Positions 73 to 63,100 are shown, counted from the first letter of the stretch. The stretch is DNA of 64,000 nt from Bdellovibrionota bacterium (GCA_050952645.1 JBMNLI010000017.1:32001-96000), one strand, 5' to 3'. The notes: generated by a model not told the origin, from the sequence alone. Translations and numbers: made by a program.

Positions 73-1803
73 TTATTTATTTTCACTTAAATTAACTGCT
101 AATATATTTGCTTGAATTTCATCCATGCCAAGATAATTCGACAGCACTGGTTTAAAAGCTATATCCACCTTTCTTCCTTCCTTTAATAGTGGATGCGAAG
201 TTTGCCTCCAAAGCATACCAGTTATCATTTTATTATATTCATCTAAAAAAACAACTTTCAAATGTGCATTTTTAAGAATATACAATTTACTAACTTCTAA
301 ATCTTTACATAGCACCGTAGGAGATGGATTGCTAATGCCAAATGGGGAAAAAAGCTCAAGCTCATTTATTACATCTTTAGTAATTTCTCCTATTTTTACT
401 TCGGTATCTGCATAAACCTTATAAGTCGTATCTATATACTTGAACTTTCTTTCGCAATATTGATTAAAAGCCACTGCAAAAACTTTTATATTTTCTCTTT
501 TTATAGAAAATCCCCCCGCCATTTCATGCCCTCCAAATTTCTCTAAATACGAAGAAAGCGTTTCTAAACATTCTATAACACTAAAATTTTCAACGCCTCT
601 AATAGAGCCTTTAAAAACTCCTGCTTTATCTAGACCTAAAACTATAGAGGGTTTGTAGTACATTTCCACTAATCTTTGAGCTACTATGCCTATAATCCCA
701 GTATGAAAATCTGGATGGTAAACACAAATTCCACTTGGAATATAATCAAGATTCTCTATCTGTTTTATAGCTCCTTTTTTAACTTGTTCTTCTATCTTTT
801 GACGCTCTGAATTTAATTTTTCTAATTTTTGAGCGATTTTTTTTGCTCTTTTTTCATCTTTAGTAGTTAAAAGCTCTGAAACTATCTCACCTGAAAGCAT
901 TCTTCCAGCAGCATTTAACCTTGGTCCTATACTAAACGATACATCATAAGTAGATACTCTCTTTGTAATCCCGATAGAGTTTTTTAAAGCTACTAGCCCT
1001 ACCCTTTTAGTGTAATTTAAAAACTCTAATCCCTTTTTAGCTATAACTCTATTTGCACTAAACAGAGGCACCATATCACAAATAGTCCCAATGGAAGCTA
1101 GGTCTAAAAACTCTTTAGGGTCTAGGACATCTTTAAAACCTTTTTCTTCTAATTTATTCTTTAAAACTATAATGAAATACCAAACTAAACCTGCTGTGCA
1201 AAGCTCATACTTAGAAAATCCGCAGCCTTTTTGTTTAGGATTTACAAATACATCTGCCTTAGGGTCGTTATTTCCAACGTGATGATGATCTATTAGGACA
1301 ATTTTGAGCCCTAAATTCTTAGCATATAATATCTCTTTTTGATTAGTCGTTCCGTAATCTAAAGACAAAAGTAGCGAGGCTCCGTCTTTTTTCGCTTCAT
1401 CTATCATTCTATTGTTTAGTCCGTAGCCCTCATTAAATCTATCTGGAACATAAACTTTCGATTTCACATCTAGTGCATCTAAAAAACTTTTTATTTGCGC
1501 CGATGATGTTAACCCATCGACATCAAAATCTGAGCATATAGCTATAATCTCATTTGCAATTATTGCATCTTTAATAAGATTAGCAGCTTCATTTAAACCT
1601 ATCATATTTTTAGGATTAGGAAGTCCCGTTTTTAGTGTAGGGTTTAAAAAGTTATCTAGTTCTTCATTAGCTTCAAAACCTCTTGCTGCTAATACATTCG
1701 AGGTAATCGTTGATAGATTAAATTTTTCACTTATTTTTTTAGCTACATCTTCTTTCTGTTCTTTTAAAATTATTTTTCTTTTAGGAGCTGCAAGTAATAC
1801 CAT
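73..1803 (-). CDS. recJ: Single-stranded-DNA-specific exonuclease RecJ
   Basis: DHH-family motifs SDFDVDG, DHH(H), GTICDMVPL, GPRLNAAGR, FGGHEMAGG; 576 aa. Confidence 0.96.
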   Translation of the reverse strand: MVLLAAPKRKIILKEQKEDVAKKISEKFNLSTITSNVLAARGFEANEELDNFLNPTLKTGLPNPKNMIGLNEAANLIKDAIIANEIIAICSDFDVDGLTSSAQIKSFLDALDVKSKVYVPDRFNEGYGLNNRMIDEAKKDGASLLLSLDYGTTNQKEILYAKNLGLKIVLIDHHHVGNNDPKADVFVNPKQKGCGFSKYELCTAGLVWYFIIVLKNKLEEKGFKDVLDPKEFLDLASIGTICDMVPLFSANRVIAKKGLEFLNYTKRVGLVALKNSIGITKRVSTYDVSFSIGPRLNAAGRMLSGEIVSELLTTKDEKRAKKIAQKLEKLNSERQKIEEQVKKGAIKQIENLDYIPSGICVYHPDFHTGIIGIVAQRLVEMYYKPSIVLGLDKAGVFKGSIRGVENFSVIECLETLSSYLEKFGGHEMAGGFSIKRENIKVFAVAFNQYCERKFKYIDTTYKVYADTEVKIGEITKDVINELELFSPFGISNPSPTVLCKDLEVSKLYILKNAHLKVVFLDEYNKMITGMLWRQTSHPLLKEGRKVDIAFKPVLSNYLGMDEIQANILAVNLSENK

Positions 1804-19208: not shown

Positions 19209-19292
19209 GCCTGGATGGTGGAATTGGTAGACACGTTGGACTCAAAATCCAATGCTAGAAATAGCGTGAGGGTTCGACCCCCTCTCTAGGCA
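19209..19292 (+). tRNA. tRNA-Leu (anticodon CAA)
   Basis: Acceptor stem GCCTGGA/TCTAGGC + A, D-loop GGAATTGGTAGAC, anticodon stem TTGGA/TCCAA with loop CTCAAAA, long variable arm, GGTTCGA T-loop; CCA not encoded. Confidence 0.96.
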
Positions 19293-39278: not shown

Positions 39279-39743
39279 TTTTGGTTCTTCACGTTTTAGG
39301 TGGGTTAGCTTAAAAGAAAATTGGAGCTAGCTTTAGCTAGCGGAGATTTTCTTTTGGGCTTCGTCGATAAGTGATACTAATTTTAAGATCTAAAACCCAC
39401 CCTTAAACGTGAGGAAGCATTTTGGTTCTTCATGTTTTAGGTGGGTTAGAAAAATTGTTTTGGGGTTAGCTTAAAAGAAAATTGGAGCTAGCTTTAGCTA
39501 GTGGAGATTTTCTTTTGGGCTTCGTCGATAAGTGATACTAATTTTAAGATCTAAAACCCACCCTTAAACGTGAGGAAGCATTTTGGTTCTTCATGTTTTA
39601 GGTGGGTTAGAAAAATTGTTTTGGAGGTTAGCTTAAAAGAAAATTGGAGCTAGCTTTAGCTAGCGGAGATTTTCTTTTGGGCTTCGTCGATAAGATGGCA
39701 CTAATTTTTTAGAATTTAAAACCACCCTAAAACGCACAAGAAC
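39279..39743. repeat. Three tandem copies of a 141-163 bp palindromic (MITE/REPIN-like) unit
   Basis: Units start at 39279, 39420 and 39581 (TTTTGGTTCTTCAYGTTTTAGGTGGGTTAG); each has imperfect terminal inverted repeats and an internal AAAAGAAAAT..GCTAGC-TTTA-GCTAG..ATTTTCTTTT hairpin. Confidence 0.9.
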
Positions 39744-41475
39744 GTTTTTTTATTTCTTCTTTTAATTTTACAATAAAATCTTCTAAAGGAATAGTTTCTT
39801 GTATTTCCTTTCCTCTTTCACGCACAGTTACGGAGTTTTCTTCTAGTTCCTTAGCGCCTAATATAAGCGTGTATTGCACTCTTTTTGGGATACTAGCTCT
39901 AATCTTATATCCTATTTTTTCATTAGAAAAATCTTTTTCAATGTAAAATCCCTCATTTCTTAAAGCATCGTATACTTTTTGCCCATAATCGTTAAAACTT
40001 TCAGATACTGTAAGGATATTTACTTGACAAGGTGCAAGCCACAAAGGGAATTTCCCTTCACAGTTTTCTATAAGAATTCCTAAAAATCTTTCGACGGAGC
40101 CAAATAGGGCTCTATGAATCATTACAGGTCTATGTTTTTGATTATCTTCACCGACATAAGAGATATCAAACCTTTCTGGCAAGCTCATATCTACTTGCAC
40201 AGTTCCACATTGCCAGCTTCTTTGCAAAGTGTCTTTTAAATGAAACTCTAATTTAGGACCATAAAAAGCGCCTTCTCCCTTACTAATTTCAAACTTAAAA
40301 TTATGTTTAGTAAGTGCATCTAAAAGTGCCTTTTCCGTGGTATCCCATATTTCATCGGAGCCTATCCTATTTTCAGGTCTAGTAGCTAAATAAATTGAAA
40401 CATCATTAAAACCAAAATCTTTATAAATATCTAAAATTAGTTTCGTTGTATCTATGCATTCTTTTTCTAGTTGCTCTAAAGTGCAAAAAATATGTGCATC
40501 ATCTTGAGTAAACTCTCTTAAACGCATCAAACCTGCGAGCGTTCCGCTAGCTTCATATCTGTGAACTTTTCCAAACTCTGCCATTTTTAAAGGTAAATCT
40601 TTATAAGATTTTAATCCTTGTTTATATATAAGCACTCCGCCAGGGCAATTCATAGGCTTTATACAAAACACTCTCCCATCTTGAGTAGTTCCTGAGTAAT
40701 TATGAGCTCCGTATTTTTCCCAATGTCCCGAAGTTTCCCAAAGCACTCTATCCATTACAGATGGAGTTGCAACTTCTATATACCCATTTTCTTCCTGTCT
40801 TTTTCTCATATATTCTATAAGCGACCTAAATATTCTAAGGCCATTATTATGCCAGAAGATAGCCCCTGGAGCGTATTCGGGATCGAAATGAAATAGCCCC
40901 ATTTCCTTTCCTATTTTTCTATGATCTCTTTTTTTAGCTTCTTCTAGCATAAATAAGTAAGCATCTAAATCTTTCTGAGAGTGAAAAGCTACTCCGTAAA
41001 TACGTGTAAGCATTTTATTGTTAGAATCCCCGTGCCAGTAGGCTCCAGCGACGCTCATAAGTTTAAAGGCTTTGATCTCTTGAGTGTTATCTACGTGAGG
41101 CCCTTGACATAAGTCTACGAAACTTTCACCAGTATAATAAAGAGACGCTTTCTCTCCTCTTTTTTCTATCTCATTTATCCAGTCTAGTTTATATTCATTA
41201 TTTTTGAAAATTTCTCTAGCTTCATTTACAAATACTTCTTTTCTTATAATTTTATCTTTTCTTTCGATAATTTTTCTCATTTCTTTTTCGATTTTTTGCA
41301 AATCTTCTAAGCCTATCGACACGCCTTCTTCAAACTCGAAATCACCATAAAAGCCATCTTCCGTAGCAGGTCCCATAGCCATTTTAGTATTAGGATAAAT
41401 TTTTAGTATCGCCTCTGATAACACGTGTTCGCAAGAGTGTCTAAGCGCCATAAGCTCATTATTTTTACTTTTCAT
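39727..41475 (-). CDS. thrS: Threonine--tRNA ligase (short form without N-terminal TGS domain)
   Basis: RHSCEH editing motif, DLCQGPH, RDHRKIG, KPMNCP, FTQDDAH, AFYGPK, MIHRA. Confidence 0.97.
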   Translation of the reverse strand: MKSKNNELMALRHSCEHVLSEAILKIYPNTKMAMGPATEDGFYGDFEFEEGVSIGLEDLQKIEKEMRKIIERKDKIIRKEVFVNEAREIFKNNEYKLDWINEIEKRGEKASLYYTGESFVDLCQGPHVDNTQEIKAFKLMSVAGAYWHGDSNNKMLTRIYGVAFHSQKDLDAYLFMLEEAKKRDHRKIGKEMGLFHFDPEYAPGAIFWHNNGLRIFRSLIEYMRKRQEENGYIEVATPSVMDRVLWETSGHWEKYGAHNYSGTTQDGRVFCIKPMNCPGGVLIYKQGLKSYKDLPLKMAEFGKVHRYEASGTLAGLMRLREFTQDDAHIFCTLEQLEKECIDTTKLILDIYKDFGFNDVSIYLATRPENRIGSDEIWDTTEKALLDALTKHNFKFEISKGEGAFYGPKLEFHLKDTLQRSWQCGTVQVDMSLPERFDISYVGEDNQKHRPVMIHRALFGSVERFLGILIENCEGKFPLWLAPCQVNILTVSESFNDYGQKVYDALRNEGFYIEKDFSNEKIGYKIRASIPKRVQYTLILGAKELEENSVTVRERGKEIQETIPLEDFIVKLKEEIKKRSCAF

Positions 41476-41700
41476 ACGAATATATGCTCCTAAATATATG
41501 CTCTAAAAAATATATGCTGTAAGAATTATTTTTTGACAAACAATCTTTATTTTACTACTTTAAAGACTTATATTGCAAGATAGAACAAAGACTAAAATTG
41601 TATAAATTAAACTAGACAGAAAAATTTATTTATCTAGAATCTATTTGTCTAGAATTTATTTATATTAAATAATTTTTTTGATAATGAGAGCTATTTTAAA

Positions 41701-41910
41701 ATGCGTAAATATAAAACTTATGATATAGAATTTAAGAAGGGTCTAGTTAAAATAGTTGAACAAGGCAAAACAATTAGTGAAGTAAGCAAAGAGTACAACA
41801 TTGCCTGTTCTACATTAAAGGAGTGGGTTAAGCGCTACTCAACAATAAAAATAAATGGTGAAGAATTAACATTAGATAAGTTTAAGGAGATAACTTCAAA
41901 GACTATTTAA
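41701..41910 (+). mobile_element. IS3-family transposase OrfA (HTH) remnant; no OrfB
   Basis: YDIEFKK.LV.....GKTISEVSKEYNI..STLKEWVKRY matches the IS3 OrfA HTH; TG...ACTAGACA at 41599-41618 may be a left end; no DDE ORF follows. Confidence 0.72.
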
Positions 41911-42377
41911 CTTACGATTCACGCATTTATACTTAAGAATAAAAAACTTTAGGAAGTTAAAAAATAAATTAACTTAACCTATTTCTAGCCTTATCTTCTA
42001 CCCGATATATATATAAACATTTAAGTATTACACTTAATATTTAGCTAAAAAATTATTTTTTAATTTCTTAACTAAGTACTAAATAATAGCTTTTAAACGA
42101 TTTATAAACAAACTATAATATTGAAATATTATTTATTGTTAGCGAATTGTCAAATTAAACTAGATTCTTAAAATTATAAGAAATGATAAAACTTTTAAAT
42201 TAAGAAAACAAATTATTATAGAAAGAGAGAAGATAAAACTTAAGGCAGGTAGCCACAAACCCTATTCTCTCTCTTTACTTATATCGACTTATACCGTGGC
42301 GCTTACGCTTGGGCAATTAGGCGAAGTCGTACTTGTCCCCGTCTCGTCGTCTAGCGAAGTCGGCAATCGGCAAAGGG

Positions 42378-42611
42378 CTAGACGAAAACACGCACCGCTT
42401 GTTCACTTGCTGCGAGCAAAGCGGCAATCTGAGGATCATCTAAATTATGCCCATGCTTGCCTGGAACCAGAGAACTAAGCGAAACCTCCAATCGGTTAGG
42501 CGGCTCGTCGCAAGGACTGGAAAGCACTTCCAAAATTTTCAAACTATTTTCGTTGCCTTCCAATAATTTTGCCAATTCTGCAGGCGGCAGCTTGTCAACG
42601 TTTGTATCCAT
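42378..42611 (-). CDS. Orphan acidic micro-protein (77 aa)
   Basis: AGGAG RBS 7 nt before ATG 42611 (MDTNVDKLPP...); locally GC-rich. Confidence 0.55.
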   Translation of the reverse strand: MDTNVDKLPPAELAKLLEGNENSLKILEVLSSPCDEPPNRLEVSLSSLVPGKHGHNLDDPQIAALLAASEQAVRVFV

Positions 42612-42710
42612 ATCGATACTCCTGTCTAATGGGGGGGGGAATTCTTTTGCAAGGCACTTTAGGCACCTTGTAATATTGTTAACTATAGAAAAACTCAAAA
42701 TACAAAATGA

Positions 42711-42790
42711 GTTCTTCCACAATAAACTTGATAGATTAAAACTTGATAGATTAAAAATAGCGATATCTTACAAGCTTATTGTGGAAGAAC
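42711..42790 (-). other. 5' leader hairpin, copy C
   Basis: GTTCTTCCACAATAAACTTG / CAAGCTTATTGTGGAAGAAC; the only mismatch is G-U on the minus strand. Confidence 0.7.
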
Positions 42791-43290
42791 CCTAAATTTT
42801 AAGTTTTTAGTATTAACAAAAGCTTCCCCTCTTTTAAGAACTTTGTCTAAAATAACGACACCCTAAAGACGATATAAGCATGCGAAAGTTTTAAAGTTAA
42901 ACTAAAATCAAACCTTAAAGTAAACCTTTAAAAAGTTTTATCTTCTACTTAAGTATATAATCTTGTAAAGAATTAAATATACTTCAGTTTTTTTATTTAA
43001 AAAAGAGAAAAACTTCTAACATCTTTAAATTAAACTTAAACTTTCCCTTCTTTTACGTATAAAATTTAATTTTAACTTTATAACCTACCCAAAATAATTT
43101 AAAAAAGCTAAGAAACACTCACATAAATTATCAAAAATAGCATACGTAAATACGTATGCACAAAGAAACAACAAATAACAAGTCTTTAAGCTCAAGTTTT
43201 AGCTCTTAAAAACATAGTATACGTAAAACAAGGGAAAATTTAGGTAAAAAAATAGAAAAAGAAAAGAAAAGATTAAAGAAAAGAAATAAG

Positions 43291-43374
43291 AAAAAAATGG
43301 GAAAGAAGATAAGGCAAGGGAGATAACAATATCTCTAAATAAAAAACCTTCTCTTTGCTCTTCCCCATTTTTTT
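43291..43374 (-). terminator. Terminator-like hairpin with U tract
   Basis: AAAAAAATGGGAAAGA / TCTTCCCCATTTTTTT; the mismatch is G-U on the minus strand. Confidence 0.6.
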
Positions 43375-43413
43375 ATTTTGACACCCTCTACCTTAAGTGA
43401 TGACTCTTAAGAG

Positions 43414-43542
43414 TTATTCGTCGTCGTCGTCGTCTTTGTCGCCATAAAAATCAGATCTCCAATCTTCTACGCTAGGGTATTTGTCATCAGACACATCGAC
43501 GCCATATAAAGTTGATGGGGGACATAAAGTTGATTTGCTCGT
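43414..43542 (-). CDS. Orphan highly acidic peptide (42 aa; ACG at the expected start position)
   Basis: AGGAG-7nt-ACG AGC AAA...; product SKSTLCPPSTLYGVDVSDDKYPSVEDWRSDFYGDKDDDDDE; alternative TTG at 43596 has no clear RBS. Confidence 0.45.
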   Translation of the reverse strand, partial: TSKSTLCPPSTLYGVDVSDDKYPSVEDWRSDFYGDKDDDDDE

Positions 43543-43639
43543 TAGATTTCTCCTAATGTCGTTGTTGTTGTTTTTTAAGCCACTAACAAATAACAAAAGT
43601 TAGCTACGATAAATGTTCTTTTCTAGCTAGGCTAGAGTT

Positions 43640-43697
43640 AAAAGAAACATTCTTAGTAAACTCTAATATTTTAAAGCTTACTTAGAATGCTTCTTTT
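43640..43697 (-). other. 5' leader hairpin, copy B
   Basis: AAAAGAAACATTCTTAGTAAACT / AGCTTACTTAGAATGCTTCTTTT; A-C mismatches read as G-U on the minus strand. Confidence 0.7.
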
Positions 43698-43972
43698 TTT
43701 ATTAAAAACATATAGTTTAAAAAATGCAAACTTTTAAAAGGAAAAACACTAGAAATAAAAGTAATGAAGCTATGAGCAAAGTAAATTTTAAAAAAAATTT
43801 TTACTCAAATGTTTTTTTTAAGGAAACTATATTTTTCGTAGGCTATAAAATCGTAAAATAAAATTTAAGCAATCTTAAAAACATAAATATCAAAAATGAT
43901 AATCAAAGACGATTAAAAAAGACGATTAAGGACGATTAAGTAAGAGAAATATTAAATAGAAAAAATATATTT

Positions 43973-44043
43973 AAAAAAACGGGAGAAGCACTAAGCATTT
44001 TTGCACGAGTGGCATATAACCTTTTTACTTCTCCCATTTTTTT
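43973..44043 (-). terminator. Terminator-like hairpin with U tract
   Basis: AAAAAAACGGGAGAAG / CTTCTCCCATTTTTTT; similar to the 43291-43374 hairpin. Confidence 0.62.
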
Positions 44044-44107
44044 TTATTCTTCTAGAGCAACTTTATTTAATTCATTATTTACCTGTCTTGCCACAGAACT
44101 ATAAAAC

Positions 44108-44518
44108 TCACAATCTCCCGTTCGTGCTCCTGTTCGTGTCAAAATGGTATAACGCATCCGCCAGCTTCGCAAGTCTCCTCAAGAACAACGGATTGCCGTA
44201 GGCGACAAGGGAAACTTTGCCAGCATCACCTTCTGCAGCTTGAATAGATGCACCTGCATCACTGCCGTTTTTAGAAATTTCGCCTGCTTTGGTTTCAGAA
44301 ACGTTACTAAGCAAATCTGAATCAGGGAATTCTTCAGGGAATTGTTTAGGGAATTCTTCAGGGGGTTCATTAGTGTTTTCATTAGAACCCACATTTGGCT
44401 CGTTTGCAACATTTGGAACGCTAGTAGTATAGTCGCTAATTGAAACACTCTCGCTACTACGCATACTGTCGAAATGTTTAGCAAAGAAAGCGAAGATTTT
44501 ACTAATTAGCTTTTTCAT
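44108..44518 (-). CDS. Orphan acidic, largely low-complexity protein (136 aa)
   Basis: AAGGAG RBS before ATG; amphipathic N-terminus MKKLISKIFAFFAKHF; PEEF repeats. Confidence 0.68.
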   Translation of the reverse strand: MKKLISKIFAFFAKHFDSMRSSESVSISDYTTSVPNVANEPNVGSNENTNEPPEEFPKQFPEEFPDSDLLSNVSETKAGEISKNGSDAGASIQAAEGDAGKVSLVAYGNPLFLRRLAKLADALYHFDTNRSTNGRL

Positions 44519-44582
44519 GAAATTCTCCTTTTGTTCTAGGAATTCTTTTTTAAATTTTCATACAAATTATTGAATTTGTATA

Positions 44583-44643
44583 AAAGGAAACATCTTAAAA
44601 TAAACTTTATGCATTTAAAAGCTTATTTTAAGATGCTTCCTTT
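44583..44643 (-). other. 5' leader hairpin, copy A
   Basis: AAAGGAAACATCTTAAAATAAACTTT / AAAGCTTATTTTAAGATGCTTCCTTT; both mismatches are G-U on the minus strand. Confidence 0.72.
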
Positions 44644-45083
44644 CGTTAGTTTTTCATAAAAATACAAGACTTTGAAAATGCAAACTTAAAAAAAAATTAG
44701 CAAGAATATCTAAGAAAAATCTGCGTCTTAATTTTAAGGAATAAAAAATTTAGGAAATTTAAGTAAAAAAAAATTACCTTAACCTAATTTATTAAGCCTA
44801 GTCTTCTACCCTGATACAAATTAGAGTGAAAAAGGAGAAATTAAACGACTCTCCCCTCTTCAAACTAATTTATATATCTGTAATTAAACGAATAATGCTT
44901 CAATAACTTTATTAAAAAATCTTTAACTTACTCTAAATTAAAGCTTTCACAAATATAAATTACTTTTAATATAGCTATGAACGTAAAAAAAAATCTTTCA
45001 CTAGTTCTTCGCTAAAGTCAATTTTCTTTTAAGCGAACTAAAAAAATTTCTTACCGCCTTAAAACGCCCAAAAGATAAACTCT

Positions 45084-46331
45084 TTAATCCTCATTAAGCC
45101 AAGACATTCTTTCCTTTATCACTTTCTCATACCCCCTACTAGATGGCTTATAAAACTCTTCTCCCTTTAATCTCTCTGGTAAATATTGCTCGTTTGGCAC
45201 GTAAGCTTTCGGGAAATCATGCGGATATTTATAGTCTTTCGCATACCCTAAATCTTGCATAAGCTTCGTTGGAGCATTTATCAAATGAAGTGGCACCTTT
45301 TCATTTGGATATTTCTTAACCATCTCTAATGCCCGCCCCATCGCTAAATAACTCCTATTAGATTTAGGAGCAGTAGCTAAATAAGTAATACATTGAGAAA
45401 TAGGAATACGCCCTTCTGGCATACCAACCTTTTCAAACGCATGAAGCACTGAAACCGCTAACTCTAACGCCCTAGGGTCTGCATTGCCGATATCCTCCGA
45501 TGCAAAAAGTATCATACGCCTAATTAAAAACCTAGGGTCTTCACCAGATTCTAAAATTCTAAATCCCCAATATAACCCCCCCGATGGCGAAGAACCTCTT
45601 AGACTTTTTATAAACGCAGAAATTAAATTATAATGCTCATCGCCCTGCTTATCATAAATAAAAGATATCGCATTCTTTAAAAACCTTTTTACATCTTCTA
45701 AAGAAGAACCCTTAGTTTTACTAAAAGCTTCTACTAAATTTAAAAGCTTTCTAGCATCCCCTAACGATGCATCTGCAAATAGACTTTTAGCTTCATCGCA
45801 AAGCTTAATTCCTAAATAATTTAAAGCATTATCTAAAACCTCAATCAAACTCGCCTTAGATAGACTTTCAAGCTTTAATACCCTTACCCTAGAAAGCAAA
45901 GCAGAGTTAACTGAAAATGATGGATTCTCAGTAGTAGCCCCTATTAAAATTATAGTCCCATCTTCTACATGCGGTAAAAGTGCATCTTGCTGAGCCTTGT
46001 TAAACCTGTGTATCTCATCTATAAAAAGCACAGTCGTGCCATTGTAGCTTTTAGCCCTGTCTACTATCTCCCTAATATCCTTTACCCCACCTAATACCGC
46101 AGAAAATGAGACGAAAGAGCAATTAAAAGTACTCCCTATAAGACGGGCAAGAGTAGTTTTCCCACACCCTGGAGGTCCCCATAAAATAAGAGACGGAAGC
46201 ACCCCTTGCCCTTTCTTTAACATTTCTAAAAATAAAGGATCGATACTCTCTAACCCCTTTATATTCTCCCACGCATTCGGACGTAAAATATCGGCTAACG
46301 GCCTAGTTTTATTATTTAAAAAATTTGACAT
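45084..46331 (-). CDS. rarA: Replication-associated recombination protein A (MgsA/RarA)
   Basis: PLADILRP, WGPPGCGKTT, FIDEIHRFNKAQQD, GATTENPSF, ISAFIKSLRGS, ASEDIGNADP. Confidence 0.96.
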   Translation of the reverse strand: MSNFLNNKTRPLADILRPNAWENIKGLESIDPLFLEMLKKGQGVLPSLILWGPPGCGKTTLARLIGSTFNCSFVSFSAVLGGVKDIREIVDRAKSYNGTTVLFIDEIHRFNKAQQDALLPHVEDGTIILIGATTENPSFSVNSALLSRVRVLKLESLSKASLIEVLDNALNYLGIKLCDEAKSLFADASLGDARKLLNLVEAFSKTKGSSLEDVKRFLKNAISFIYDKQGDEHYNLISAFIKSLRGSSPSGGLYWGFRILESGEDPRFLIRRMILFASEDIGNADPRALELAVSVLHAFEKVGMPEGRIPISQCITYLATAPKSNRSYLAMGRALEMVKKYPNEKVPLHLINAPTKLMQDLGYAKDYKYPHDFPKAYVPNEQYLPERLKGEEFYKPSSRGYEKVIKERMSWLNED

Positions 46332-60159: not shown

Positions 60160-63100
60160 TTAGAAATTATTTTTTTGCAACTCGGAAGCTTTGCCCATAT
60201 TTTTCATCTTTTCATCTATCAAGCCTTTAAGCTCTAGTGCATTTTTAAAATCCTTATCGAATATAAAGATCTTTGATAAAACGTCTAAAGCTTCTTCATA
60301 TTCCTGCTTTGCATAATAGCATGCGGCTAAGGAGTATAGAAAATTTAAATCTCCTGGGTGCAAGTCTAAATAATTTTTAAGCACTACCTCTAAATCATCT
60401 AACCTAGAAAGCTTATAAGATAAATCTATTACGCCTAAAAGCGCCCTAACGTTTTCAGGATTAACCTTTAGAGATTTCATATAGTACTTGTAGGCCATAT
60501 CAAAATTATTTTCTTCGATATAACATAACCCTAAACCTGAAAGAGCGACATCATACTTATCATTTATGCTTAATGATAAATTAAATTTTTCTTTAGCTTC
60601 TTCCCACGCACCAGAGGTTGCCATTAAAATTCCTAGGTCAGCTATCGCTCTATAAGATGATGGATTTTTATTTATAACTTGCTCTAGAATTTCAAGAGAA
60701 GAATTGTTATCTCCCTTTAGCATTAAACATTCTGCTTTTAAAATATTTACGTATTCTCTATGATTAGAATTTAGTGAGGTGTTTTGCATTAGCTCATCTA
60801 AACCACTTTCTAGCTCTTTAAAATCCCTATTTTTTTTAGCTTCTTCTAAAGATGCAAGCCTAGCGTCGATAGAGTCAAACATAGGAAAGCTTCCTTCTTT
60901 ACTTTCTAATATTTCAGTTTTACATTTTGAAGCTTCAGATTTTGAAGTTTCAGATTTTGAAGTTTCAGATTTTGAAGCTTCACATTGCGTGCTTTTCTCC
61001 CTAGCATCTTTTAGCGATTTTGCCGCATCTATCTTTTCTTGCATTTCAGCTACACCATTATATAAAGGAGAGATCTCTTTTATCTTATCTAAAGCCTCCT
61101 TAGCGTTAAGAAGGTCATCAGACTTATAACAAATTCCCGCATAAGAAAATAGCATATGAACATTGCTATCATTATTTGCTAAATAAGTTTCTAAAGCCTT
61201 TTTTATATCCTTATACTTATCGGTTAAAAATGAACACTCCATAAGATGCAATAGTGCCACTTCGTTATAAGGGTCAAGCTTTAGCGATTTAATAAATAGC
61301 TCCATCGCTTCATTATAATCTTCACGGCGCATCAAACAGATTCCTAACCCCGATAAAGATTTAACATCACTGCCATCTACCATAAGCGCTTTTTCAAAAT
61401 ATTTTTTCGCTTCACTAACATCTTCTTTAGCTAGAGATACTGCACCGATGCTTCTAAAAAGTTTTAAAGAAGAGCCTACATTTTGCTTAAGTGCAAAGTA
61501 TATTTCTAAAGCTTCATCATACTTATTATTTTCTGCTAAATTTTGTGCTTTTTTAAATTCTTCTTCTTGAAGCAAACTAAGCTCGTTATCTATACCACAC
61601 ACTTCATCTGCTTCTTTTGATATTATATTTTCTTTTATAGTATTATTAAAAGTAGTATCATTAAAAGTAGTATTGTTTAAATTAAAATTACATACTTGAT
61701 TATAAGCAAAAACCGTTTCCCTAGTGCATCGCTCCCAAGAATAGTTTTTTACTAACTCTTTTAGCTCGCCTTTAACGGGACTATAATAAGCTGCCATTAC
61801 AGCATTTTTTATACTATCTAAAGAATACGGGTCGCAATAATATACGGCATCTTTTAAGTAATCAGATATGCTTCCATTTTTGCCTGTTACAACGTTTGCA
61901 CCATAAAAAGCGGCTTCTAACGATACTAGCCCTGGTAGTTCATAGAAACTAGCAAGAGCATGAACCTTACAAGCAGCATAAGCGTCTGCTAAATCTTGTA
62001 AAGGAAGTTTATCTAGAACGATAGTTTCCCCTTTTCTTTTAAAATTTCTAACGGCTTTTGCGTATTCTTTTTGGTATGTAAAACCTCCACTAGCTAACAC
62101 TACTGGTATATCTACATCCTCTAAAGCACTTAGAAGCATTAGCTGATTTTTTCTCGACTCTAATCTTCCAACACAAAATATAAAATCTTTAACATTATAT
62201 TTTTCAAAAAATCTTTCTTTATTTCCCTTTATAGTAGTATTTAAACCAAAATGCGTTTCAAATATTTTTGCTTTTGGAGCATATACTCTTTTTAAATTCT
62301 CGGACTCAGAAGAGCCGCTAGTTAATAGTGCATCGGCATTTTCACATAGCCAAGACACATCGAACGTTTTCGATGGCGTTATAGATTTAATATCTAATTT
62401 TTGATTATTTAAAAACTCTTTGCTCTGCCCATTTTGAACGTATTTCATCATATAATCTGCTACCGCAATAGATTGATTATGAAAAGATTGCACATCTTCA
62501 AATAGAGTAGTTACTACGAAAGGAACGCCGCTCGATTTAGCCTTTACTCCTGCAAGCGTTGAAAAAGTAGGTATAGCAAAATTAAAAATATGCACTAGGT
62601 CGTAATCTTTAAAATTTGTAGCATCTATATTTTCACAAATACCTACAAAAAAACCCATTTGCTCTAAATGCTCTTTTAGTTTTTCCATAACTACTGTATC
62701 TCCCCCACGCTCTAGAAAAGCATTAGGTCTATTAACAAATAGTATTTTCTTTGTTTTATTATTACTCGTATTGTTGTTTATATCTTGATTCATATTTTGG
62801 TTCATATTTTGATTCATATTTTGATTCCTCTTGTTTTCTTTAGTCTTTCCTTTAGTTTCTTTTTTAACTAGCTTGCTAGCCTTACTATCTTCATTTAACT
62901 TAGCTATAACATCTTTAATCTTTTTATACGCTACATTAAACGAATTGTTTTTAATAAATAGTTTGGATTTAGTTTTTAAGTATTCTCTAAGCCTGCTATC
63001 CGTTAGTAAAATCTTTGTAGACTCTCCTACTTTCATGCCTAAAGTTATATGCCATACGCAATCTTCATACTTATTAAACATTGGTGCTAGAGACGTCATT

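Follow-up and report, generated by a model that had tools for sequence, protein, structure and literature searches.

We analysed a 64,000-nucleotide stretch of DNA from a Bdellovibrionota bacterium (hereafter the window, with positions counted from its first letter), in which the 3.6-kb spacer between mgsA (45084-46331, minus strand) and thrS (39727-41475, minus strand) holds three long hairpins, A, B and C, each lying upstream of a short open reading frame (ORF) on the minus strand. Comparison of the sequences supports a structure that acts at the RNA level, as a single sense strand, in the case of A and B, which belong to one duplicated module, and we give a probability of about 0.4 to the reading that these two are stem-loops in 5' leaders that affect the fate of the mRNA, either through cleavage by RNase III or through protection of the 5' end. 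Hairpin C is probably a small palindromic element of separate origin, as judged from its sequence.

A first-pass annotation of this DNA had placed three hairpins on the minus strand with variable loops and with mismatches nearly all of which were G-U on the coding strand only, and all of this was borne out by folding. Hairpin A (44582-44644, minus strand; inverted repeat I5) consists of 27 pairs, three of them G·U, around a 9-nt loop, with a free energy of folding (ΔG) of -32.6 kcal/mol (z -11.8) compared to -22.2 for the plus strand. The 26 pairs of hairpin B (43640-43697, minus strand; three G·U) are arranged as 14 + 12 around one A·A mismatch and closed by a 4-nt loop (ΔG -28.9, z -7.6; plus strand -17.1), and hairpin C (42709-42792, minus strand; inverted repeat I8) has 22 pairs, two of them G·U, and a 40-nt loop that holds a 17-nt tandem duplication (ΔG -36.1, z -9.0; plus strand -26.7). 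For each hairpin, 0/200 shuffles matched the native fold energy. Folding of both strands thus puts the minus (ORF) strand of all three ahead by ~10 kcal/mol, a loss on the plus strand that arises because the G·U pairs of the minus strand turn into C·A there; the non-Watson-Crick pairs of the minus strand are all G·U except two, and none is an A·C mismatch. A second, perfect hairpin of 8-12 bp (44558-44579, minus strand; AUACAAAU...AUUUGUAU) adjoins hairpin A on its 3' side, within the ORF A leader.

By local alignment, hairpins A and B form the 3' parts of clear paralogues: module A (44581-44696, minus strand), composed of a T-rich stretch, a 13-nt box (44675-44687) and hairpin A, and module B (43639-43746, minus strand), in which the box (43721-43733) is followed by hairpin B. 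The local alignment of the two scored 61, as opposed to 25.9±3.0 for dinucleotide shuffles (z ~11.6), and the similarity spans ~116 nt, from the T-rich stretch 5' of the box to the U-rich tail 3' of the hairpin. Outside the modules the scores were those of shuffled sequence (post-hairpin leader, 17 vs 16.4; ORFs, 14 vs 16.9; upstream DNA, 24 vs 27.1), and the similarity of the terminators after the two ORFs was marginal, with 12/300 shuffles scoring equally. The box itself, AAGTTTGCATTTT, stands 5' of both hairpins as the annotation had reported; its sole other exact copy in the genome is inside a coding region, and with at most one mismatch it is not recurrent (28 matches vs 26 for the reversed control). 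Aligning the stems with a covariance model built from A alone, and counting the pairs by hand, we found among the 27 pairs the compensatory changes that had been described: four double changes (at 7-61, 15-53, 16-52 and 21-47), together with one pair deleted on both sides, one pair changed from U-A to U·G and two pairs broken, while the internal G·U pairs 11-57 and 25-43 are the same in A and B. Unless pairing of the minus strand is under selection, such a pattern is difficult to account for.

These observations are consistent with a model in which A and B are two copies of a ~116-nt module (13-nt box, then 27-bp stem-loop) that would have been duplicated locally and come to sit 5' of two different small ORFs of foreign composition, the stem being kept as a single-stranded structure of the sense strand, in other words as a leader stem-loop in the RNA of both small transcription units. 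The stem would most likely act on the fate of the mRNA, by protecting the 5' end against 5'-end-dependent decay through RNase E, by serving RNase III as a perfect two-turn duplex to cleave, or by both. Both enzymes are encoded in the genome (RNase III, TIGR02191, 226 bits with a cut-off of 166, at G000:C4:26883-27518; RNase E/G, 484 bits), and the stems present continuous duplexes of 27, 26 (with one mismatch) and 22 pairs, compared to the ~20 bp or more of an RNase III site. Since a perfect duplex of 22-27 bp is a textbook RNase III substrate, processing of the stems is plausible by analogy. Further support comes from an AGGAG that lies 6-7 nt before the (would-be) start of each ORF and from the terminator-like hairpins that follow ORFs A and B. 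When entire leaders were folded, the long stems were kept and the Shine-Dalgarno (SD) sequence lay outside them, and the ribosome-binding site would not be occluded by the stem. We infer a promoter for each module, co-transcription of the hairpins with the ORFs and any action of a nuclease on them; reading of the sequence offers a candidate promoter, TTGCAT-N17-TTTATG/TTTAAT, that would put the start 0-6 nt before the stems, and the 5'-terminal geometry of the stem depends on this prediction, which a promoter scanner does not call.

The relationship between A and B does not extend to hairpin C, and the three-member covarying family proposed in the annotation did not hold up. In local alignments C scored 23 and 24 against A and B, with shuffle means of 23.4 and 22.8, and an nhmmer profile of A and B had, at E<=10, no match in the 1.95-Mb genome besides these two themselves. 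The covariance model from A gave 44.5 bits to B and 29.5 bits to C; run over 105 genome tiles and the sister species, it gave 34.4 bits to an unrelated hairpin at C17:369600-369658 and 34.2 bits to a sister-species hairpin, so that C falls below two unrelated long AU-rich hairpins. C does have 9-nt words in both arms in common with A, ranking second among 251 other strong hairpins, of which an unrelated one has longer, 10-nt words in common with A. The shared core that had been read as a signal is likewise weakened, the bare motif not being enriched in the window (2 matches vs 1.22 expected; 1 vs 1.25). The outer 8 nt of hairpin C, GGTTCTTC, are identical to the terminal inverted repeat of miniature inverted-repeat transposable elements (MITEs) of the host genome; this 8-mer occurs 111 times, ~3.5x the chance number by our own estimate, and is also carried by several other leader hairpins of the genome. 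The basal stem of C resembles an inverted repeat upstream of a hyper-acidic gene on contig 12. C is thus probably an element related to GGTTCTTC-ended MITEs that was inserted into the leader of ORF C and, if transcribed, it would act physically like A and B. The candidate cis-regulatory RNA of the annotation is retained for A and B, as a sense-strand structure without an Rfam family, and given up for C as a member of the family.

Searches for relatives did not enlarge the pair. Neither blastn, nor nhmmer, nor the covariance model over all 105 tiles, as the annotation had suggested running, recovered further copies of A or B in the genome. At the DNA level, 6/41 genomes (our own and 40 relatives) gave a match at E<=0.001, none of them on a hairpin, and the sole match to the box region (in relative G002) was without an adjoining hairpin. 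The covariance model added no member from the 40 relatives either (best 26.2 bits, E 0.04), a weak piece of evidence, as the search filter also missed B and C in the host genome (G000) itself. A pattern scan of metagenomes returned 64 loci, 0 of which fold like A or B (the best, at -21.3 kcal/mol, have other structures), and phage records gave no match. The comparison with Rfam (release 15) that had also been proposed left the hairpins uncatalogued: across the whole window only a tRNA at 19209-19292 exceeded its gathering threshold, and at E<=10 in 42200-45100 the best matches on the hairpins were eukaryotic microRNA-precursor models at 33.2 bits (threshold 70) and 32.1 bits (threshold 83), as is to be expected for any long hairpin. 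Genome contigs searched with MgsA yielded distant relatives only (43-56% identity) and no closer spacers, and the entries listed by a full-text literature search contained no reference to such hairpins in Bdellovibrio-like organisms.

Comparing contigs of four DNA runs, we found a variant contig over 44454-44913 with seven differences, none in hairpin A (nearest, 44581 and 44654), but with ~1 difference expected in the 63 nt of the hairpin this absence is not significant; one contig across hairpin B showed 0 differences. A joint skipping 43149-45010 was considered as a cassette-free allele and rejected, its shorter side having 20 letters and starting inside a MITE. In the only other genome of the same genus, that of the sister species (G001), thrS and mgsA are also adjacent, and their 1.36-kb spacer is unalignable with the 3.6-kb one described here. 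Within the sister-species sequence (L019) we noted an unrelated 21-bp hairpin with one G·U pair (899-957, minus strand), located ~55 nt before an SD-led ORF of 60 aa (673-855, minus strand; GC 0.54; GC at third codon positions, GC3, 0.67) that has a basic tail and of which only variants of 96-98% identity are known. This parallel arrangement speaks for the leader reading of A and B.

As for the genes downstream of the hairpins, the annotation had an AGGAG-led ORF behind each, and this is so in terms of spacing (64-99 nt from hairpin to AGGAG, then 6-7 nt to the start), with an ATG for ORFs A and C and only an ACG for ORF B. ORF A (44108-44518, minus strand; AGGAG-N6-ATG; GC 0.43, GC3 0.39) encodes 136 aa and is followed by a terminator-like hairpin (43965-44051, minus strand; GGGAGAAG...CTTCTCCC, then a T run; 18 pairs, ΔG -28.0). 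ORF B (43414-43542, minus strand; GC 0.42, GC3 0.39) has 42 codons in frame after AGGAG-N7-ACG, and a terminator-like hairpin behind it (43283-43382, minus strand; 17 pairs, ΔG -29.1). ORF C (42378-42611, minus strand; AGGAG-N7-ATG; GC 0.47, GC3 0.45) encodes 77 aa. The three ORFs are orphans of foreign base composition: none has a Pfam match; ORFs A and C have no paralogue in the genome, no homologue in relatives G001-G003 and none among 5.8 billion proteins; and an exhaustive phmmer search with ORF A over 1.84 billion representatives returned only itself. Their GC of 0.42-0.47 and GC3 of 0.39-0.45 exceed the 99th percentiles (0.412 and 0.37) for long ORFs in this genome, in spacer DNA with a GC of 0.24-0.27. 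AlphaFold2 models from single sequences were of low confidence (predicted local distance difference test, pLDDT, 59.5 and 51.1).

The remainder of the spacer contains no further ORF of at least 110 aa. Between the terminator of ORF B and hairpin C lies a MITE-like repeat with inverted ends (43027-43265), of which the genome has >40 partial or full copies at 73-97% identity, and between ORF C and thrS there is a stand-alone 69-aa ORF (41701-41907, plus strand) with a transposase helix-turn-helix (HTH) domain (PF01527, HTH_Tnp_1; 35.7 bits, cut-off 24.1). A 64-nt patch that takes in the 3' end of ORF C and the DNA just beyond it (42340-42403) carries 13 listed differences in contigs of two other metagenome runs; these are often 3 nt apart and do not fall on third positions of ORF C, and the flanking sequence differs by a few percent.

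Long hairpins are common elsewhere in this genome. Our own stem scan collected 252 at -20 kcal/mol or better, many of them in repeat families. For hairpins that belong to no repeat, are strongly asymmetric and lie no more than 150 nt 5' of an ORF start, the sense strand was the more stable in 18/19 and, once possible terminators of co-directional upstream genes had been set aside, in 8/9, a bias in favour of the leader reading of A and B. One leader hairpin of 25 bp (G000:C14:68714-68816, plus strand; ΔG -37.2) stands 37-44 nt before a 931-aa ribonucleotide reductase gene; palindromes farther upstream of this gene resemble NrdR boxes. The genome's largest hairpin family is represented in the window by three tandem copies, 161-162 nt apart (39307-39683), of a hairpin with 26-nt arms, AGCTTAAAAGAAAATTGG...; the family has 20 members in the scan set and many more with longer loops, and all are biased to a single strand. 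A dense array of an 18-bp palindrome, ATGTTC(C/T)ACGTGGAACAT, recurs about every 50 nt over ~1.5 kb at G000:C11:44500-46050, and an inverted repeat with 30-nt arms at 60923-60987 (I6) alternates GAAGCTTCA and GAAGTTTCA words, an AAGCTT/AAGTTT alternation that it shares with the hairpin cores.

Several of these results weigh against the reading of A and B as leader stem-loops that set the fate of the mRNA. The covariation is a single pairwise comparison of only two homologous copies, and the G·U excess of the sense strand could partly come from C-to-T mutation bias on the non-template strand. The promoter scanner calls no sigma-70 promoter at A or B, and the -10 candidates are without the conserved A at position 2. 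ORF B has no ATG, GTG or TTG at the proper distance from its SD, only the ACG, and would be either a decayed gene or one with a rare non-ATG start. Neither of the two relatives with the ribonucleotide reductase gene, G001 and G002, has the hairpin in front of it, and comparable long leader hairpins elsewhere in the genome are recent insertions, not conserved regulators. Finally, the similarity between A and B ends exactly after the U-rich tail of the hairpin, which fits a self-contained short unit equally well.

Insertions of this kind suggest a second explanation, which we regard as a possible but rather unlikely one: that the hairpins are palindromic DNA of a selfish or accidental kind, accumulated in AT-rich spacers as insertions resembling MITEs or as what is left of these, with only incidental effects on the genes. 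Palindromic repeat families are abundant in the genome, the same spacer holds the MITE and the stand-alone transposase HTH ORF, hairpin C begins with a MITE terminal repeat present in 111 copies, other long leader hairpins are genome-specific insertions, and the spacer differs in length and sequence from that of the sister species. A and B, however, exist in only two copies where a mobile element of this type would have many, and reading of the sequence revealed no target-site duplication flanking A, B or C. The homology between them is also asymmetric, with the box on one side only, and the compensatory changes with fixed G·U pairs argue for selection on pairing after the duplication. In addition, the Y1/HUH transposase family PF01797, whose enzymes would act on single-strand DNA hairpins of the REP/RAYT or IS200/IS605 type, had 0 matches in G000 (93.75% complete), as opposed to matches in 6/14 reference genomes that served as control.

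The abrupt end of the A/B similarity could alternatively reflect a self-contained short transcription unit, in which box and hairpin specify a hairpin RNA of ~65-70 nt ending at its own U tail, as a small RNA gene or as an attenuator past which only part of the polymerases would continue into the ORF. This we consider unlikely. It would account for homology confined, within the cassettes, to the segment between ~50 nt 5' of the stem and the UUUUA tail, for the U-rich stretches that follow the stems (UUUUAU in A, UUUUAA in B and AUUUUGUAUUUU in C), and for the A-rich 5' flank which, by pairing with the U tail, resembles bidirectional terminators. In the folds, the U tails are exposed only with the basal A-U pairs opened, and the arrangement of an intrinsic terminator, a G+C-rich stem directly followed by a U run, was found in none of A, B and C. 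A terminator scanner run over 41400-45200 reported one terminator-like site, which is at none of the three hairpins; their stems greatly exceed, in length and in AU content, the evident terminators behind ORFs A and B. Moreover, with only 0-6 nt 5' of the stem an alternative antiterminator fold would not fit, RNase III would be expected to cleave a perfect 27-bp duplex rather than leave it as a stable small RNA, and no Rfam small-RNA family was reached, the microRNA-precursor models lying far below their thresholds.

A more far-reaching and quite improbable proposal is that the thrS-mgsA spacer is a landing zone in which short foreign ORFs are domesticated by native adaptors, each made up of a promoter region rich in A+T, a long sense hairpin and an SD at fixed distance. 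The A/B box-hairpin would then be a portable adaptor copied between captured ORFs, and the sister species would present an unrelated hairpin and a GC-rich ORF at the same site. If this were true, the hairpin would be required for expressing or taming newly acquired genes, and not a decoration of them.

A duplex-DNA explanation, with the inverted repeats as operators for a dimeric regulator that recognizes AAGCTT/AAGTTT half-sites, is very unlikely: the core is common to both arms and a related AAGTTT word occurs in the upstream box, but the spacing of the half-sites ranges from 4 to 40 nt, the imperfections of the arms are strand-specific (G·T on one strand only), the compensatory changes are distributed over the full 27-bp stem, much more than an operator would cover, and the core motif is not enriched. 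Least credible of all are attC-like sites for single-strand recombination in an integron-type cassette array, an idea prompted by three co-oriented orphan ORFs with GC3 above the 99th percentile of the genome and by imperfect, strand-specific palindromes with variable loops, since the attC core motifs RYYYAAC and GTTRRRY were not seen at the stem ends on reading of the sequence, each ORF comes with long AT-rich spacers and with an SD and a terminator of its own, the hairpins are placed 5' of the ORFs and not 3', and the spacer holds no further ORF of at least 110 aa, no search aimed at integrase families having been made.

Taken together, A and B are an element of a familiar kind that has two copies in a single genome, and the pair shows genuine structural conservation. 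If the hairpins control mRNA fate, they would be an uncatalogued leader stem-loop on very young, foreign-looking genes of a little-studied, uncultured lineage, and A and B, along with the analogous but unrelated unit of the sister species, give a hint that newly acquired genes may come with long leader hairpins. At present their value is mainly that of a clearly bounded candidate to put through a reporter or RNase III assay.

Akin to phage morons, which are self-contained promoter-gene-terminator units of deviant composition, the small ORFs described here are each equipped with a leader, an SD and a terminator and deviate widely in GC from the host; unlike morons, they sit in a chromosomal spacer between the housekeeping genes thrS and mgsA and have no match in phage records. 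The Correia/NEMIS elements of Neisseria and similar MITEs have terminal repeats that fold into RNase III-sensitive hairpins in mRNA leaders. The likeness lies in the palindromic insertions in 5' leaders, with hairpin C and other leader hairpins of this genome carrying GGTTCTTC, and the difference in that the module of A and B is asymmetric and present in two copies, as opposed to a dispersed family, and shows no evident target-site duplication. A 5'-terminal stem of the ompA type protects an mRNA from 5'-end-dependent decay, a principle cited in the review PMC3997798 (its refs 92, 93). The stems of A and B would likewise lie within a few nt of the predicted 5' end, in a genome that encodes RNase E/G, whereas that 5' end is predicted from a weak promoter match and the stems are much longer than protection needs. 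Closest, in our view, are the leader sites processed by RNase III. Hairpins processed by this enzyme also form the early R sites of phage T7. Compared to such leader sites, those of E. coli rnc and pnp included (cited in the same review, PMC3997798), the stems here are uninterrupted where many natural sites have internal loops, bear no sequence relationship to them and precede orphans in place of nuclease genes; like them, they consist of a long, near-perfect duplex of about two helical turns or more, placed in the 5' part of the (predicted) transcript before the ribosome-binding site and free to vary in sequence while pairing is kept, in a genome that encodes the enzyme.

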